Of a stretch of 64,000 bases of DNA, positions 19,953-50,947 are shown in pieces. Both the position numbers and the translations under genes were made by a program. Origin of the DNA: Bacteroidales bacterium (GTDB lineage Bacteria; Bacteroidota; Bacteroidia; Bacteroidales; UBA932); assembly GCA_015060325.1 (NCBI GenBank), contig SUYQ01000003.1, positions 20,528 through 84,527 on the forward strand. Reading direction: 5' to 3'. How positions within the stretch are numbered: position 1 is the first letter of the stretch; every line of letters starts with the position of its first letter. The notes under the pieces were generated by a model, which was not told where the DNA came from, did not search any database, and was given only the letters and a program-made list of their open reading frames with translations.

Positions 19953-21356
19953 ATGGCAGAAGCTACAGTACAGATTCCAACAGAACTCGGGACCGAAAAT
20001 ATCGGCAGACTGCTGAAACAGTATGCCTTGCCAGCCATCATCGCCCAGATAGCCGCTTCGCTGTACAACATGGTGGACAGCATATATATCGGGCATATGG
20101 ACTCGAATGCGATATCCGGACTGGCCGTCACCTTTCCTTTGATGAACCTCTCGACAGCCTTCGGCACTCTGGTAGGAGCCGGAGCTGCAACCATGGTGTC
20201 CATACTTCTCGGACAGAAACACTATCATATGGGCAACAAAGTTCTGGGTAATGTAGTCAGCCTGAACATAATAATAGGATTTCTGTTCATGGCCGGAACG
20301 CTGGCATTTCTGGATCCCATATTATATTTCTTCGGCGCCAGTGACAATACACTGCCCTATGCCAGGGACTACATCACCATCATCCTGTATGGCAATATAG
20401 TCACCCATCTGTATTTTGGACTCAACGCCGCAATGAGATCGTCAGGCAATCCAAAGAAAGCGATGGGACTTACCATATTCACAGTGATATTCAATGCCAT
20501 ACTTGATCCTATATTCATATTCGGGCTTGATATGGGGATTGCCGGAGCAGCCTGGGCCACAGTGACAGCACAGGTAGTTGCAATGTTTGTCGTACTTCAC
20601 CACTTCAACGATCAGAACAGGGCGATTCATTTTGAAAAAGGCATATTCAGGTTGAACTGGAATGTCGCGAAGAAATCACTGATCATAGGAACAGGTCCAT
20701 TCCTGATGAACCTCGCGGCATGTGCGGTAACACTGTTCATCAACCAGCAGCTCAGAGAATTCAGCGGCAGTGCTGACGCCGGTGACGATTATATCGGAGC
20801 ATATGGCATATGTAACCGGGTCGTCTTCATGTTTATCATGATATGCATGGGACTCAACCAAGGAATGCAGCCTATTGCAGGATACAACTACGGAGCACGT
20901 CTGTATACCAGAGTCAAGGAGGTCTTCTGGAAGACAGCCAAGCTGGCAATGTGCATGACGACACTGTGTTTTGTAATCGGAATGTTTTTTCCACGTATTG
21001 CATGCAGTGCATTCACATCAGATCCGGAGCTGCTCGACATAGCTGAACGCGGAATGAGGCTCATCACCTTGGTATTCCCGATAGTGGGTCTTCAGATGAT
21101 AGGGACCAATTTCTTCCAGAGCCTTGGCCTGGTAAAGAAATCAATCTTCTTGTCATTGTCCAGACAGCTGTTGCTGTTGCTTCCGCTTCTCTACACCCTG
21201 CCATTATGGCTGGGCACAGACGGAGTCTGGCTAAGCTTCCCTATCTCCGATCTTTTATCCACCGTTCTGACAATAATCCTCCTGAAGAGATTGTTCAACA
21301 AATTCAACAGCCTCCATGACGGAGACAGCGCCAATGCGCTGGATGGCCAACTATAA
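19953..21356 (+). CDS. MATE-family efflux transporter
   Basis: ALPAIIAQ..LYNMVDSIYIG, NAILDPIFIF..GIAGAAWAT, QGMQPIAGYNYGA. Confidence 0.93.
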   Translation: MAEATVQIPTELGTENIGRLLKQYALPAIIAQIAASLYNMVDSIYIGHMDSNAISGLAVTFPLMNLSTAFGTLVGAGAATMVSILLGQKHYHMGNKVLGNVVSLNIIIGFLFMAGTLAFLDPILYFFGASDNTLPYARDYITIILYGNIVTHLYFGLNAAMRSSGNPKKAMGLTIFTVIFNAILDPIFIFGLDMGIAGAAWATVTAQVVAMFVVLHHFNDQNRAIHFEKGIFRLNWNVAKKSLIIGTGPFLMNLAACAVTLFINQQLREFSGSADAGDDYIGAYGICNRVVFMFIMICMGLNQGMQPIAGYNYGARLYTRVKEVFWKTAKLAMCMTTLCFVIGMFFPRIACSAFTSDPELLDIAERGMRLITLVFPIVGLQMIGTNFFQSLGLVKKSIFLSLSRQLLLLLPLLYTLPLWLGTDGVWLSFPISDLLSTVLTIILLKRLFNKFNSLHDGDSANALDGQL

Positions 21357-46569: not shown

Positions 46570-47514
46570 TTATAGTGACTTCAGACAGTCGGTAACATTC
46601 TTCTCGATGCGTGCCGAGATGTTCTCACCCTCAGCCTTTACGAACTTCTCACCGATGATGTTTTCATAGAGCTCGATGTAGCGCTCTGTGATGCCGTCCA
46701 CGATCTCGTCTGTCATCTCAGGCACCTGCTGTCCCTCCTGACCCTGGAAACCGTTGGCCATCAGCCACTCACGAACAAACTCCTTCGAGAGCTGCTTCTG
46801 CTTTTCACCCTTTGCGAGACGCTCCTCATAGCCCTCTGCGTAGAAGTAGCGTGATGAGTCAGGAGTATGGATCTCGTCCATGAGATAGATCTTTCCGTCC
46901 TTCTTTCCGAACTCATATTTCGTATCCACAAGGATAAGCCCCATCTTGGCAGCGATCTCCGTTCCTCTCTGGAAGATGGCTCTTGTGTAGGCTTCGAGCT
47001 GCTCATAATCTTCCTTGCTTACGATACCCTGAGCGATGATCTCCTCCTTTGAGATGTCCTCATCGTGACCTTCTGCGGCCTTGGTAGTAGGAGTGATGAT
47101 AGGCTGAGGGAACTTCTGGTTCTCTACCATTCCTTCCGGCATCTCAACGCCGCATATCGTGCGCTTGCCGGCCTTGTACTCTCTCCAGGCGTGGCCTGAA
47201 AGATATCCACGGATAACCATCTCGACCTTAAAAGGCTCGCACTTGTGACCCACAGTCACCATCGGATCCGGAACTGCTATCTTCCAGTTCGGAAGGATGT
47301 CTGCAGTCGCATCAAGAAACTTGGCAGCAATCTGATTCAGCACCTGTCCCTTGAAAGGGATTCCCTTAGGGAGCACCACATCAAATGCTGAAATACGGTC
47401 AGACACGACCATTACCAGATAATCATCACCGATGCTGTATACGTCACGCACCTTACCTACATAGTGGCCGTTCTGGCCAGGAAAATTAAAATCTGTCTTT
47501 ACGATTGCTTCCAT
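46570..47514 (-). CDS. purC: SAICAR synthase
   Basis: [46 protein letters not shown]; true start MEAIVKT at 47514. Confidence 0.96.
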
Positions 47515-47561
47515 GTCTATATTATTATTTTCTTTTATTTCGGATTCTGTTTCCGGTTCCC

Positions 47562-47666
47562 CACTGTCATTTCGAGCGAGCGAAGCCCCACTGTCATTTC
47601 GAGCGAGCGAAGAGAGTCGAGACAATCGACGAAGTCGCTTGAGCGTCAGCGAAAGAATCTCCAGCC
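47562..47666. repeat. REP-like mosaic: two 27-bp CACTGTCATTTCGAGCGAG units plus an inverted AGATTCTTTCGCTGACGCTC element
   Basis: Units at 47562 and 47589; 47641-47660 is the reverse complement of the 23827 element head. Confidence 0.88.
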
Positions 47667-47681
47667 GCCAAAGATACGAAT

Positions 47682-48704
47682 TTATTCGTACTCCGTAATC
47701 TTCAACCGGTATTTATTGCTACCCAGATTCTGAAAATACCGGGGAACGTCCTGCATCTCCTGTCCGATAATCCCGGTCATCCCCGACCTGACAGTTCCGG
47801 TCATCCCCGGTTTGACATCCCCCGTCATCCCCGGCTTGACCGGGGATCTCCTCCACTGCCCGTCAACACAGAACAGCACCGGATCCTTCACGCCCTCAAG
47901 TTTAAACCCAAGCTGCTCATATACAGCGCCTTCTGACCACTCCAAGTCAGCGTAGCTCATCACATCATCCGGATGCACATCATCTATAAAAGCCTTGAGC
48001 ATCTTGCCCATGCCGCCATTGATCCTCACGCCAGGGAGGGATGCATACCGTGTCCATTCATAAGACCGTATCGTCTTCTCCCCCTTCTGCCACTTTCGGG
48101 CATTGGAAAACGTAGCCACCGCCACCAGACTCCCCGGCTCTACCCAACTGTCATTTCGAGCAAGCGAGTCCACACTGCCATTTCGAACAATCGAGTCCCC
48201 ACGGTCATTTCGAGCGAGAGAGCCTACACTGTCATTTCGAGCGAGCGAAGCGAGTCGAGAAATCTCCAGCCACCTGCCAGTATACCGCTTCAAATACAGC
48301 CCATACCGATACCGGCACGCAGCATCACCATAGCTATGATTTTCACTCAGGAATGCCGCCGCAGTCTCCTTATCGATCTTCCTTACCTCGCAATTGCGGG
48401 CATACATCGATATGAAGATCTCGAGATGCGCCAAAAGCCTGGCTTTCATCATTTCCGGCTGACGCCTCCAGCGATCTTCAGTGATGATCACTGCTGCTGA
48501 TCCTTCTTGACTCAAAACAGCCAGCAAATTATTGATAGTTCTTGCATCCTCGCGAGCCTGCTCCTCATTTTCAGCCTGGACATCCCACGGCACCACACAC
48601 TTCCGTCCTACACTCAGCACTTCCACCCCGCAGCGGGCTTCCGCCACACAGTCAAACGCGTTAGCACAAAGAAAATCACGTATTTCGTCTGCCAAAAGAG
48701 TCAT
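47682..48704 (-). CDS. Hef/Mom-like GNAT-fold protein with a degenerate Vsr/DUF559-like N-terminus and two in-frame repeat insertions
   Basis: IITEDRW; [16 protein letters not shown]; LVAVATFS; YEWTRYAS; [13 protein letters not shown]; [16 protein letters not shown]. Start MTLLAD lies 5 nt after a TAATTTTG box (48710-48717). Confidence 0.65.
47776..47849 (+). repeat. Palindrome GTCATCCCCGGCTTGACCGGGGATCT with two further 24-bp half-copies, in frame within the CDS
   Basis: GTCATCCCCG at 47776, 47800 and 47824; encodes VKPGMTG repeats. Confidence 0.93.
48146..48265 (+). repeat. Palindrome CACTGTCATTTCGAGCGAGCGAAGCGAGTCGAGAAATCT with three further 27-bp half-copies, in frame within the CDS
   Basis: Units at 48146, 48173, 48200 and 48227; 120 nt = 40 codons (SLARNDS repeats). 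Confidence 0.93.
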
Positions 48705-48917
48705 GACCGCAAAATTACACAAAATCTTCGTTTGCCGTTGTATTTGCAGACAAATCCTGCAATCTGTGGCACAGAAAAAATTGAAAATCAGGCAATTGCC
48801 TAGCACTGCGTGCTCCCCTTTGGCGGCACGCAAATGTAGCTATACACCTAACACACAACGAATTACGCGCCACTCTCATTTATATAGTCATCCAACCCTT
48901 TGACCACCAACAACTTG

Positions 48918-48955
48918 ACTACCAACACGGTGGGTCATTTTGCCCCACCGTGTTG
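48918..48955. repeat. Hairpin CAACACGGTGGG-TCATTTTGC-CCCACCGTGTTG; 48918-48949 is a perfect inverted copy of 51191-51222
   Basis: Direct comparison of the two positions. Confidence 0.9.
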
Positions 48956-49058
48956 ATAGTTAATGCGCTGACCGATAGCGCTTTATGTGTCCATCAGATT
49001 GTAGGCATTTCGTTCATCTGGACATTTAGTGGGAGAGATTGGGAAATCAAGTTCAATA

Positions 49059-49336: not shown

Positions 49337-49750
49337 AGTTATATTGCGCAACCGATGAGACATTTAATATGAAAGAAGCTGACAGCAAGGGAGGTTGAAT
49401 CCTTGTTGTCAGCTTCATGTTATCAGTTCATGTTGCCTGATCATGTTACTTGATCATGTTGCCAGCTCCTGGTGCGAGCTTCATGTTTTTGCAGAACGGT
49501 ATGTTCTAGAAAGACTGGAATGTCGACCATTTCGTGTTGGCCTCGGCTGCTGTCTCAACGCCATCCGGAAGATTCACGAAGAAGTCAAATCCGGTCCAGG
49601 ACTCGATCTGGTCTACTGAGACTGCGTAGTTTGTGTAGGAATCCGAGTAGGTCTTATGCTCGAACCAGAAACCTATAGCACTTACACCCGGCAGTTCAAG
49701 CCAGGACTTGCCAGACACAGCCGGCAGCTGTGCAGCGACAGTCGTGAATG
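49337..49750 (-). repeat. Diverged direct duplicate of 51770-52067 plus 52626-52700 (nuclease 3' end, terminator and downstream flank)
   Basis: Shared CAGTTATATTGCGCAACCGATGAGACATT and AAGAAGCTGACAGCAAGG hairpin; homologous coding segments. Confidence 0.92.
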
Positions 49751-49766
49751 ACACCACCGGGCCCAT
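49506..49766 (-). pseudogene. Orphan endonuclease fragment with an in-frame internal deletion of the catalytic core
   Basis: SWLELPG joined directly to VSAIGFWFEHK; lacks the 186 codons (equivalent to 52068-52625) that include RGH; C-terminal 58 aa are 51/58 identical to the intact copy. Confidence 0.85.
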
Positions 49767-49803: not shown

Positions 49804-50736
49804 TTAAATTCTTGAGATCAATGCCTCAACCTGCTCAACTGTAAGCATAGTCAGCTTCGCCACTTGCTGCACATCCATTCCAGCTGCAAGCATATTAACA
49901 GCCACTTCTGCACGACCCTCAGCACGACCCTCAGCACGACCTTCTGCACGACCTTCTGCAAGTCCCTTCTCACGACCCTCTGCAAGTCCCTTCTCACGAC
50001 CTTCTTCCAGTCCGGTCTTAATCGCATAGGCAAATTGATTTCTCAAATCTCTTTCTGTTGTCATTTTGCTCAATATTAAAGTTCGTAAATCATCACTGCT
50101 CATTATCAGTTCACCTGTATCGAATATCTTATCAAAGACATCATGAGTCAAAGCTTTGGGACGTCCCTGCAACAGATGCATGTTCTTCAAGCAGAAATAC
50201 ATTCCTTCAAGTATATTGCCATCAAGCTCATCTTCGGTCTTCTTAAACTTTGGCAATTCAAGAAAAATGTATGTCAGTCTATTGGATAAAAGTCTATGGT
50301 GTTCTTGTTCCAACAACCTGTATACGGTTTTGACATTCGTCAGGCCCTCATTCTGTTTGAGGGTAAAATCCAAAATACTGATTACATAAATCGGACAAAA
50401 GTCATAACTGTCCTGTGCAGAATCAACTTGTTTCAGAACCTGATGCATAGAATAGTAGAGCATCCTCTCTGCATACCATTCCTGCTTTCGATTCTGAAGT
50501 TCAACAATAATTCTAGAACCATCATCTGTCTTACAGAACAAATCATAGATTGATGTTTTACGGTCACGAATATTCGGATGCATTTCCTTATCCATAAAAT
50601 CAACATCCACAATCTTCCTGTCATCAATCACCTGATTGAGAAACTCAATCATGACAGTCTTCGTAGACTCCTGTCCAAAAACCAGTTTGAAGGCATCATC
50701 GACCATCAAATCCGGATACTTTACATCTTCATGCAT
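49804..50736 (-). CDS. Rpn-family recombination-promoting nuclease / putative transposase (PDDEXK_2)
   Basis: DDAFKLVFG, IYDLFC.TDDG.RIIVELQN, ERMLYY, FLELPKF; C-terminal EGREKG/EGRAEG repeats; AVNML helix. Confidence 0.92.
   Translation of the reverse strand: MHEDVKYPDLMVDDAFKLVFGQESTKTVMIEFLNQVIDDRKIVDVDFMDKEMHPNIRDRKTSIYDLFCKTDDGSRIIVELQNRKQEWYAERMLYYSMHQVLKQVDSAQDSYDFCPIYVISILDFTLKQNEGLTNVKTVYRLLEQEHHRLLSNRLTYIFLELPKFKKTEDELDGNILEGMYFCLKNMHLLQGRPKALTHDVFDKIFDTGELIMSSDDLRTLILSKMTTERDLRNQFAYAIKTGLEEGREKGLAEGREKGLAEGRAEGRAEGRAEGRAEVAVNMLAAGMDVQQVAKLTMLTVEQVEALISRI
49906..50007 (-). repeat. 12/24-bp coding repeats in the Rpn C-terminus
   Basis: EGREKGLA x2, EGRA x4. Confidence 0.9.
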
Positions 50737-50947
50737 AAATTTTAATTTTAGATTAAACACTCCCAATACGGGCTAATAAAAATTTATGCATCCTCCCCTC
50801 AACGATTCCCCACAAATGTGCAAAAAAATCCGCACCAAGTCAACACACTGATACAGATTTTTCTTTTTATTTAACAAACTTTTTCTAAATCTTTAAATTT
50901 TTTCTTTTTTTTAATCTCCTCTGTGGTCTTCATTCCGGGTCACGTTG

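Follow-up and report, generated by a model that had tools for sequence, protein, structure and literature searches.

Within a 64,000-nucleotide stretch of DNA from a Bacteroidales bacterium (GenBank assembly GCA_015060325.1, contig SUYQ01000003.1, forward-strand positions 20,528 to 84,527; this whole stretch is referred to here as the window), a gene on the minus strand encodes a protein of 340 residues in which a nuclease fold that has lost its catalytic residues precedes a GNAT acyltransferase domain of the Mom/Hef clade. As judged from sequence, the protein belongs to a large, single-copy and vertically inherited family that spans the Bacteroidota and has so far gone unnamed. Its architecture and homology are secure, and its function is what we infer: the reading favoured here, to which a probability of roughly 45% is given, is that of a Mom-clade nucleic-acid acyltransferase that is active and plays a housekeeping part, for which a link to tRNA is preferred. 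Such an enzyme would combine an inactive nuclease relic with an active GNAT domain, which would transfer an acyl or aminoacyl group to the exocyclic amine of an adenine in a nucleic acid; its transcription would start from a conserved -7 box and yield an mRNA that is leaderless or nearly so, and two in-frame minisatellites would extend surface loops of the protein and leave its core untouched.

The features that underlie this reading are as follows (positions are those of the window).

47682..48704, minus strand: coding sequence of the two-domain protein gene (340 residues plus stop codon); inactive EDxHD/Vsr-fold domain followed by a Mom/Hef-clade GNAT domain
48414..48704, minus strand: EDxHD/Vsr-type restriction-endonuclease fold, residues 1-97, assigned from a structural model (alpha-beta-beta-beta-alpha-beta); catalytic residues lost
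47685..48413, minus strand: GNAT acyltransferase domain of the Mom/Hef clade, residues 98-340, assigned with Foldseek, Pfam and hhalign
47997..48026, minus strand: motif-A-like loop of the RINGGMGK type, residues 227-236, at the beta4-alpha3 junction; G230 and G231 invariant in 73 sequences
48710..48717, minus strand: Bacteroidetes -7 box TAATTTTG, located from the sequence, its end 5 nucleotides before the ATG; predicts a leaderless mRNA or one with a 1-nucleotide leader

Domain architecture and family

The list of open reading frames (ORFs) for the window gives a minus-strand frame at 47682..48833, which is longer than the conserved gene. Because conservation in an alignment of 17 homologues begins only at the internal ATG at 48704, the gene was assigned to 47682..48704; a TTG start at 48833 was ruled out, since no conservation is found upstream of M44 of the longer frame and the -7 box would fall inside the extension. 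The motif series listed in an initial annotation, made from the sequence alone, is present in full within the shorter frame (IITEDRW at residues 73-79, FLSENH at 118-123, LVAVATFS at 193-200, SYADLEWS at 250-257 and YEQLGF at 262-267, with two further 10-residue motifs at 101-110 and 227-236). Plus-strand ORFs also lie over the gene, such as that at 47973-48500 (175 residues, with VISSERS-type repeats), and are by-products of the repeats and the coding strand, and not genes.

An AlphaFold2 model of the whole protein, built on a 73-sequence alignment, displays two domains with a predicted local distance difference test score (pLDDT) of 87.9 and a predicted template-modelling score (pTM) of 0.83, the regions of low confidence being confined to two repeat loops. 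The N-terminal domain, which reaches a pLDDT of 91 when modelled alone, finds its best match in the PDB in the catalytic domain of I-Bth0305I (3r3p; probability 1.00, template-modelling (TM) score 0.65/0.66, root-mean-square deviation 3.4 A), and also matches the Vsr endonuclease (1cw0) with a query-scaled TM score (TMq) of 0.71. A weak Pfam match to MTES_1575 was obtained in orthologue P0077, and no sequence match of this domain passes any threshold.

The active site of that fold has been lost. With the equivalents of Vsr E25, D51, H64/H69 and D97 taken as the catalytic reference residues of the EDxHD family, an alignment with the Hef proteins of phages RaK2, AR9 and Paride demonstrated that the phage motifs ELD, IEY[DN]G.YWH and a downstream H..D/K either have no counterpart or are hydrophobic in the window protein and in 20 bacterial sequences, and the motif E.[DN]G..WH was found in none of 80 further metagenomic ORFs. 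These absences bear out the proposal of the initial annotation that the nuclease is decayed. The residues still kept comprise the helix-1 glutamate E7 and the last-strand series E76-D77-x-W79, which leads into the inter-domain helix. With an isoelectric point (pI) of 4.7 and a net charge of -6, against a pI of 6.1 for the whole protein, the nuclease-fold domain is acidic, and it evolves fast, with a median identity of 36% across 74 related species; it probably persists as a structural or regulatory relic packed on the catalytic domain, and not as a nuclease.

For the GNAT domain, Foldseek searches of the PDB returned Ard1, Eis, Naa50, SpeG and others as top matches, each with probability 1.00, and Mu Mom (8bv8_A) with an E-value of 3.4e-4, the longest alignment of the PDB matches (250 columns) and a target-scaled TM score (TMt) of 0.56-0.58. 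Against the viral models of BFVD, the top 20 matches are all phage proteins named 'homing endonuclease' or 'endonuclease-like', in which both domains are aligned (E-values 1e-22 to 1e-13, TMq 0.53-0.68), and Mom follows next after these Hef-type proteins (Salmonella phage Mom model, E-value 6e-7, TMt 0.65). In the predicted structure, the loop R227-I-N-G-G-M-G233-K is followed by a helix (231-243), aligns with PRNSES(124)R of Mom, and occupies the position of GNAT motif A, in agreement with the resemblance that had been noted from the sequence, but is one residue longer than the canonical pyrophosphate-binding Q/R-x-x-G-x-G/A. Across the 73 aligned sequences, whose mean column identity is 26%, R103, F118, H123, S200, R219, G230, G231, F239, D253, W256, S257, Y262, F267 and others are invariant or nearly so. 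The GNAT core, at 72-74% identity across 80 species, compares with 74% for the neighbouring SASA gene product and 93% for that of purC, and on these sequence comparisons is under ordinary purifying selection.

Sequence-based relationships to Mom are of lower significance. Since a single-sequence hhalign comparison with Mu Mom was too weak, a Mom-family profile of 30 members was built; the resulting alignment is itself weak (E-value 0.025, probability 2%) and is colinear over 165 columns. That alignment pairs H123 with H58 of Mom, E216 with E108, R219 with R111, D253 with D149 and Y262 with Y159, and places G233 opposite S124 and E255 opposite R151. R111, S124, D149 and R151 are required for Mom activity (PMC13219725, PMC7261163), and R111 is specific to Mom and not general to GNATs (PMC7261163). 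The phage Hef relatives carry serine at the S124 position, within GGASK. The helix-turn-helix (HTH)-like insertion of Mom (residues 175-209), essential for activity and proposed to bind DNA (PMC13219725), has no counterpart in the window protein, and repeat-free orthologues have only a short loop at this site.

Searches of Pfam and NCBIfam produced no match for the window protein, and PADLOC produced none for the window protein and orthologue P0077 at E-values up to 10. The absence of a Pfam match is attributable to the repeat inserts together with divergence, in that repeat-free orthologues do match Mom: sub-threshold hits to PF25680 were obtained in 9 of 17 orthologues (best 21.1 bits, E-value 2.6e-4), and the window protein stripped of its repeats scored 14.4 bits (E-value 0.03), the gathering threshold of 27.1 bits being reached by neither. 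In PHROGs, residues 191-283 match the 'homing endonuclease' group phrog_3339 (6e-28) and the 'HNH endonuclease' group phrog_559 (6e-23). The first of these two matches supports the assignment of the motif series to phage Hef-like endonucleases that the initial annotation had made. HMMER profiles run against PDB sequences returned only spurious matches to CTCF zinc fingers (E-values of 0.02 or above), which were discarded as compositional.

In a collection of 5.8 billion proteins, 1747 homologues were found, with lengths of 251-399 residues; none carries a Pfam domain, and those that are named are called 'hypothetical protein'. A profile search of representatives at 50% identity retrieved 12148 clusters at an E-value of 1e-3 or below, and 253 at 1e-30 or below. 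The exact window protein occurs on 24 contigs from other samples, and the closest named genomes are metagenome-assembled genomes of Candidatus Cryptobacteroides and other Bacteroidales from the guts of ruminants and other hosts. Hundreds of Bacteroidota species, cultured Dyadobacter among them, carry the family, and most of its distant members are basic (pI of about 9).

Chromosomal setting, promoter and repeats

The gene is followed, in order, by purC, SASA, GDPD, PGI, PMI, S4, AddB-like and UvrD genes. In 74 of 80 related species purC is the immediate downstream neighbour, usually at a distance of 40-200 nucleotides. A housekeeping status with vertical inheritance is indicated by this synteny, by a GC content like that of the neighbouring genes and by the lack of a PADLOC match; recent horizontal transfer was ruled out on the same grounds of composition and fixed synteny. 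The degree to which the purC product is itself conserved is unusual: its median identity is 93% across species in which the SASA product reaches 74%.

Other branches of the family display different neighbours, and in a deeply diverged Cytophagales clade the family gene runs into the start of miaA. The gene miaA, which encodes the tRNA A37 N6-isopentenyltransferase and is not found in the 64-kb window, is overlapped by the family gene by 17 nucleotides in Pseudarcicella (where purH is also nearby), by 14 nucleotides on a JGI contig and by 1 nucleotide in Dyadobacter chenwenxiniae. It lies directly downstream in 25 of the 61 metagenome loci with enough downstream sequence, at gaps of -28 to +55 nucleotides; the family proteins linked to it form 17 clusters at 70% identity, with pairwise identities down to 33%, and the MiaA proteins of these loci share 42-65% identity with that of Pseudarcicella, taken as reference. 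Among relatives of Cytophagales type (Dyadobacter, Pseudarcicella and many metagenome contigs from soil or fresh water), where the overlap with miaA is 1-28 nucleotides, two genes often come before the family gene: an Ada-like AraC/MGMT gene and one for a small outer-membrane beta-barrel. In a third group of the family, the locus lies between gyrA and clpB.

On the coding strand, the region upstream of the gene reads TAATTTTG, CGGTC, ATG, and the coordinate 48717 given in the initial annotation as the end of its feature is the 5' end of this box, so that the reported spacing of 5 nucleotides is correct. The box is more than a chance occurrence, because the window contains 57 instances of the pattern TAnnTTTG where 29 would be expected (a count of 57 was reached in 0 of 100 shuffles), and because a box is kept among orthologues: in 44 of 66 orthologous loci of other species it precedes the ATG by 4-10 nucleotides (mostly 5-7), within flanks that differ. 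This retention of position reinforces the near-leaderless promoter that had been proposed, and supports, on sequence grounds, a conserved transcript that is leaderless or nearly so. A sigma-70 promoter scan was set aside as irrelevant for Bacteroidetes, and no RNA family of Rfam was found in the gene or its spacers, the purC leader included.

Further features in and around the gene are listed below.

48831..48838, minus strand: second TAnnTTTG box, TACATTTG, from a pattern search, 127 nucleotides upstream of the ATG; possible alternative promoter
47669..47676, minus strand: TATCTTTG box, from a pattern search, just past the stop codon; likely the purC promoter, by inference only
48147..48248, minus strand: 27-nucleotide minisatellite, 3.8 copies, in frame (residues 153-186, SLARNDS-type units), detected by TRF; GNAT beta2-beta3 loop
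47772..47840, minus strand: 24-nucleotide minisatellite, 2.9 copies, in frame (residues 289-311, VKPGMTG units), detected by TRF; the loop where Mom has its HTH-like insertion
47559..47612, minus strand: two extra 27-nucleotide units in the spacer that separates the gene from purC, flanked by the AATCTCCAGCC block that also flanks the intragenic copy
46570..47514, minus strand: purC (SAICAR synthase; Pfam SAICAR_synt), conserved downstream neighbour

The repeats mentioned in the initial annotation are real and comprise the two in-frame arrays above, which coincide with the stretches of low pLDDT (residues 172-183 in the 27-nucleotide array and 299-307 in the 24-nucleotide array). Their copy number varies among otherwise near-identical orthologues, from 3 to 5 units for the former and from 1 to about 10 for the latter. 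Since a single VKPGMTG unit dates back to the ancestor of the family, the 24-nucleotide array represents a local expansion; in 1.25 Mb of loci, its core unit was found almost nowhere but at this position of the family gene. With the flanks GAGTCGAGA ... AATCTCCAGCC shared between the regions 47558-47669 and 48196-48274, the 27-nucleotide unit resembles a dispersed element of small size, one copy of which also inserted in frame within the gene. At 48227-48265, 47620-47657 and 47820-47840, metatranscriptome contigs accumulate to more than 1000x and break off into many different flanks, and the units are thus multi-copy in the community. A purC leader starting from the box at 47669-47676 would be about 155 nucleotides long and would include 27-nucleotide repeats.

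Upstream of the gene are an Endonuclease_NS fragment, an Rpn-like PDDEXK_2 gene, two Endonuclease_NS genes and a gene for a Big_3 protein, none of which travel with it: of 80 species, 7 have Endonuclease_NS within 4 kb of the gene and none has the Rpn-like gene there. The description of the locus as the edge of a nuclease-rich island, advanced in the initial annotation, is not supported, given these counts and the neighbour-like GC content, and the upstream nucleases, not being conserved neighbours, were ruled out as functional partners. The Rpn-like gene (49804-50766, minus strand) encodes a PD-(D/E)XK 'transposase' (PDDEXK_2, 1.8e-47) whose C terminus carries an EGREKGLA/EGRA tandem repeat, and has a GC content of 0.38 against about 0.50; because it is absent from this position in 80 of 80 related species, it probably represents a recent insertion. 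Beside it, an 86-residue ORF (49506-49766, minus strand) that matches positions 179-222 of the 223 of Endonuclease_NS, at its C-terminal end, is probably a gene fragment. At 48915-48963, about 210 nucleotides upstream of the gene, a 23-nucleotide inverted repeat with a 3-nucleotide loop and 87% complementarity may correspond to a terminator of the upstream unit or to an element resembling repetitive extragenic palindromes.

Function and competing explanations

A role as a nucleic-acid base acyltransferase is proposed because Mom-type residues are kept, especially the arginine of the substrate cleft, and because the relatives of the protein are exclusively nucleic-acid-related. Within that role, a link to tRNA, either as the target or in the form of an aminoacyl-tRNA donor, is considered at least as likely as a Mom-style protection of DNA, because the DNA-binding insertion of Mom and both the zinc ribbons and the active nuclease of Hef have all been lost, the relic domain is acidic, a restriction partner is absent, the gene is translationally coupled to miaA in the Cytophagales, and Mom is itself tRNA-dependent. 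Mom was reportedly proved to be a tRNA-dependent DNA-modifying GNAT only in 2026, and we know of no cellular relative of Mom with an assigned function.

Several points weigh against this reading. Sequence similarity to Mom is weak (at best 21.1 bits against a Pfam threshold of 27.1; an hhalign E-value of 0.025 at 2% probability), and the essential S124 and R151 of Mom are glycine (G233) and glutamate (E255) in the clade of the window protein. The motif-A-like loop argues for acyl-CoA, and hence offers no reason for a tRNA link; given its near-canonical form, acyl-CoA is still an open candidate as donor. The linkage to miaA is restricted to one clade, that of the window protein being linked to purC and the third group to gyrA/clpB, and those relatives whose activity is known, Mom and Hef, act on DNA. 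With regard to expression, the locus is represented in RNA libraries: metatranscriptome contigs, in which carry-over of DNA is possible, cover the gene at low depth and extend to 48837-48884, 130-180 nucleotides upstream of the ATG. These contigs do not place the transcription start site, and a leaderless transcript is therefore a prediction.

One rival explanation, the idea put forward in the initial annotation, is that the enzyme acts as Mom does, acylating or aminoacylating N6 of adenine in the DNA of its own cell as an epigenetic mark or as protection from nucleases. Mom, the closest characterised relative, modifies double-stranded DNA, the substrate-facing arginine is kept (R219 for R111 of Mom), the fused domain has a DNA-endonuclease fold, and Iyer et al. 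read phage fusions of restriction endonucleases with Mom as resembling restriction-modification (PMC7824862). This idea is nonetheless judged unlikely, if worth keeping in view: the HTH-like insertion that Mom cannot do without is missing, the relic domain is both acidic and poorly conserved, and the conserved synteny includes no partner nuclease or restriction gene, the partners instead being purC and miaA, with PADLOC again silent. A different possibility is that the Mom/Hef likeness reflects ancestry only and that the protein is a GNAT of the ordinary kind, with a protein or a small molecule as its substrate, for example a metabolite of the purine pathway. The near-canonical motif-A-like loop and a tyrosine in alpha4 are typical of acetyl-CoA-dependent GNATs, purC is adjacent in Bacteroidales and purH is nearby in Pseudarcicella, and the overall pI of 6.1 is in keeping with such a substrate. 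Conservation of an arginine that is specific to Mom (PMC7261163), a set of detectable relatives composed entirely of nucleic-acid enzymes, the coupling to miaA and the basic character of most distant family members make this explanation a distinctly doubtful one.

The loss of the nuclease active site, the expansion of minisatellites within the ORF and the fast evolution of the N-terminal domain might also suggest the decaying remnant of a homing endonuclease, without function today. That explanation is effectively refuted by conservation, and is left with a negligible probability: the ORF is intact at a fixed chromosomal position in hundreds of species, GNAT columns are invariant by the dozen, the evolutionary rate of the GNAT core is that of a normal neighbouring gene, the repeats never break the frame and lie exclusively in loops, and the promoter is conserved.

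If the favoured reading of an active nucleic-acid acyltransferase is taken further, the family may represent the cellular, Bacteroidota-wide counterpart, and possibly the ancestor, of the phage Mom/Hef GNATs, installing an undescribed N6-acyl or aminoacyl modification of adenine either in the tRNA of abundant gut and soil bacteria (A37 or its vicinity, where MiaA also acts, being one example) or in their chromosomal DNA; this extension is speculative and, as a whole, improbable. The initial annotation had called the enzyme domesticated; for this large and vertically inherited bacterial family, transfer may have run either from phage to cell or from cell to phage. The family offers an accessible way towards what may be a new nucleic-acid modification in bacteria that dominate gut and soil, as well as a clear case in which a homing-endonuclease-type nuclease domain is retained as an inactive scaffold, and a leaderless-type promoter that different species have kept within a phylum whose translation initiation is unusual. 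Should the protein be an ordinary acetyltransferase, the finding reduces to a useful annotation.

Comparison with phage Hef, Mom and related nucleases

At about 32% identity, tblastn detected the GNAT half of the protein, together with the last strand and helix of its nuclease half (residues 69-279), in a total of 343 phage records; among them are the annotated Hef-like genes of Bacillus phages AR9 (g265) and PBS1, the hef gene of Klebsiella phage RaK2 and, in Pseudomonas phage PA5oct, five copies. In RaK2 Hef, the order of domains is DUF7487, MTES_1575 (2e-6) and Mom (5.7e-5), and the nuclease part aligns with 3r3p; Hef-type enzymes have been placed in the EDxHD/Vsr family by Taylor et al. 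(PMC3239194), and the Mom domains of jumbo phages have been described as fused to restriction-endonuclease domains by Iyer et al. (PMC7824862). The Hef architecture that the initial annotation had given, a Vsr-type nuclease followed by a Mom-related GNAT, is confirmed by these scores and reports. The prototype of this group, the Hef protein of phage U5, cleaves nrdB (PMC2988022).

Hef-type homing endonucleases share with the window protein an EDxHD/Vsr-fold domain, a connecting helix (EDxW...RL..L) and a GNAT domain with all of its motifs, and the two align structurally over about 350 columns (Foldseek E-value 1e-22, TMq up to 0.68). Phage Hef proteins, however, are 500-580 residues long and carry N-terminal zinc-ribbon/DUF7487 modules (DUF4379 and DUF7487 were found), whereas the window protein, with its 340 residues, lacks zinc ribbons and starts directly at the nuclease-fold domain. 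The catalytic ELD and IEY[DN]G.YWH motifs are kept in the phage proteins, in contrast to the dead active site described here, and the phage genes are present in 3-5 copies per genome, as opposed to a single, syntenic copy.

Mom is a tRNA-dependent N6-adenine DNA glycyl/carbamoylmethyl transferase that uses Gly-tRNA(Gly) (PMC13219725). Mu Mom (PF25680; 8bv8) resembles the window protein in its GNAT fold and in a weak, colinear profile alignment that supplies counterparts of H58, E108, R111, D149 and Y159. The window protein differs in that it scores below the Pfam gathering threshold, lacks the HTH-like insertion, carries G233 and E255 for S124 and R151, possesses an extra N-terminal nuclease-fold domain, and is encoded by a chromosomal housekeeping gene and not by a late phage gene. 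With I-Bth0305I (3r3p), Vsr (1cw0) and restriction endonucleases of the MTES_1575/DUF559 type, the N-terminal domain shares its fold and strand order (TM 0.65-0.71), but it is acidic and lacks the catalytic aspartate, glutamate and histidine residues.

For a nuclease-dead, core-chromosomal, purC- or miaA-linked and leaderless version of such a protein, no description was found in the literature covered, which does not extend to Iyer et al. 2009 and 2013. Its combination of domains is shared with the 'momylation' fusions of restriction endonucleases with Mom that Iyer and Aravind reported in silico (Cell Cycle 2009; Viruses 2021, PMC7824862); those fusions have been read as restriction-modification-like units with an active endonuclease, whereas the version described here is nuclease-dead, belongs to the core genome and is linked to purC or miaA.

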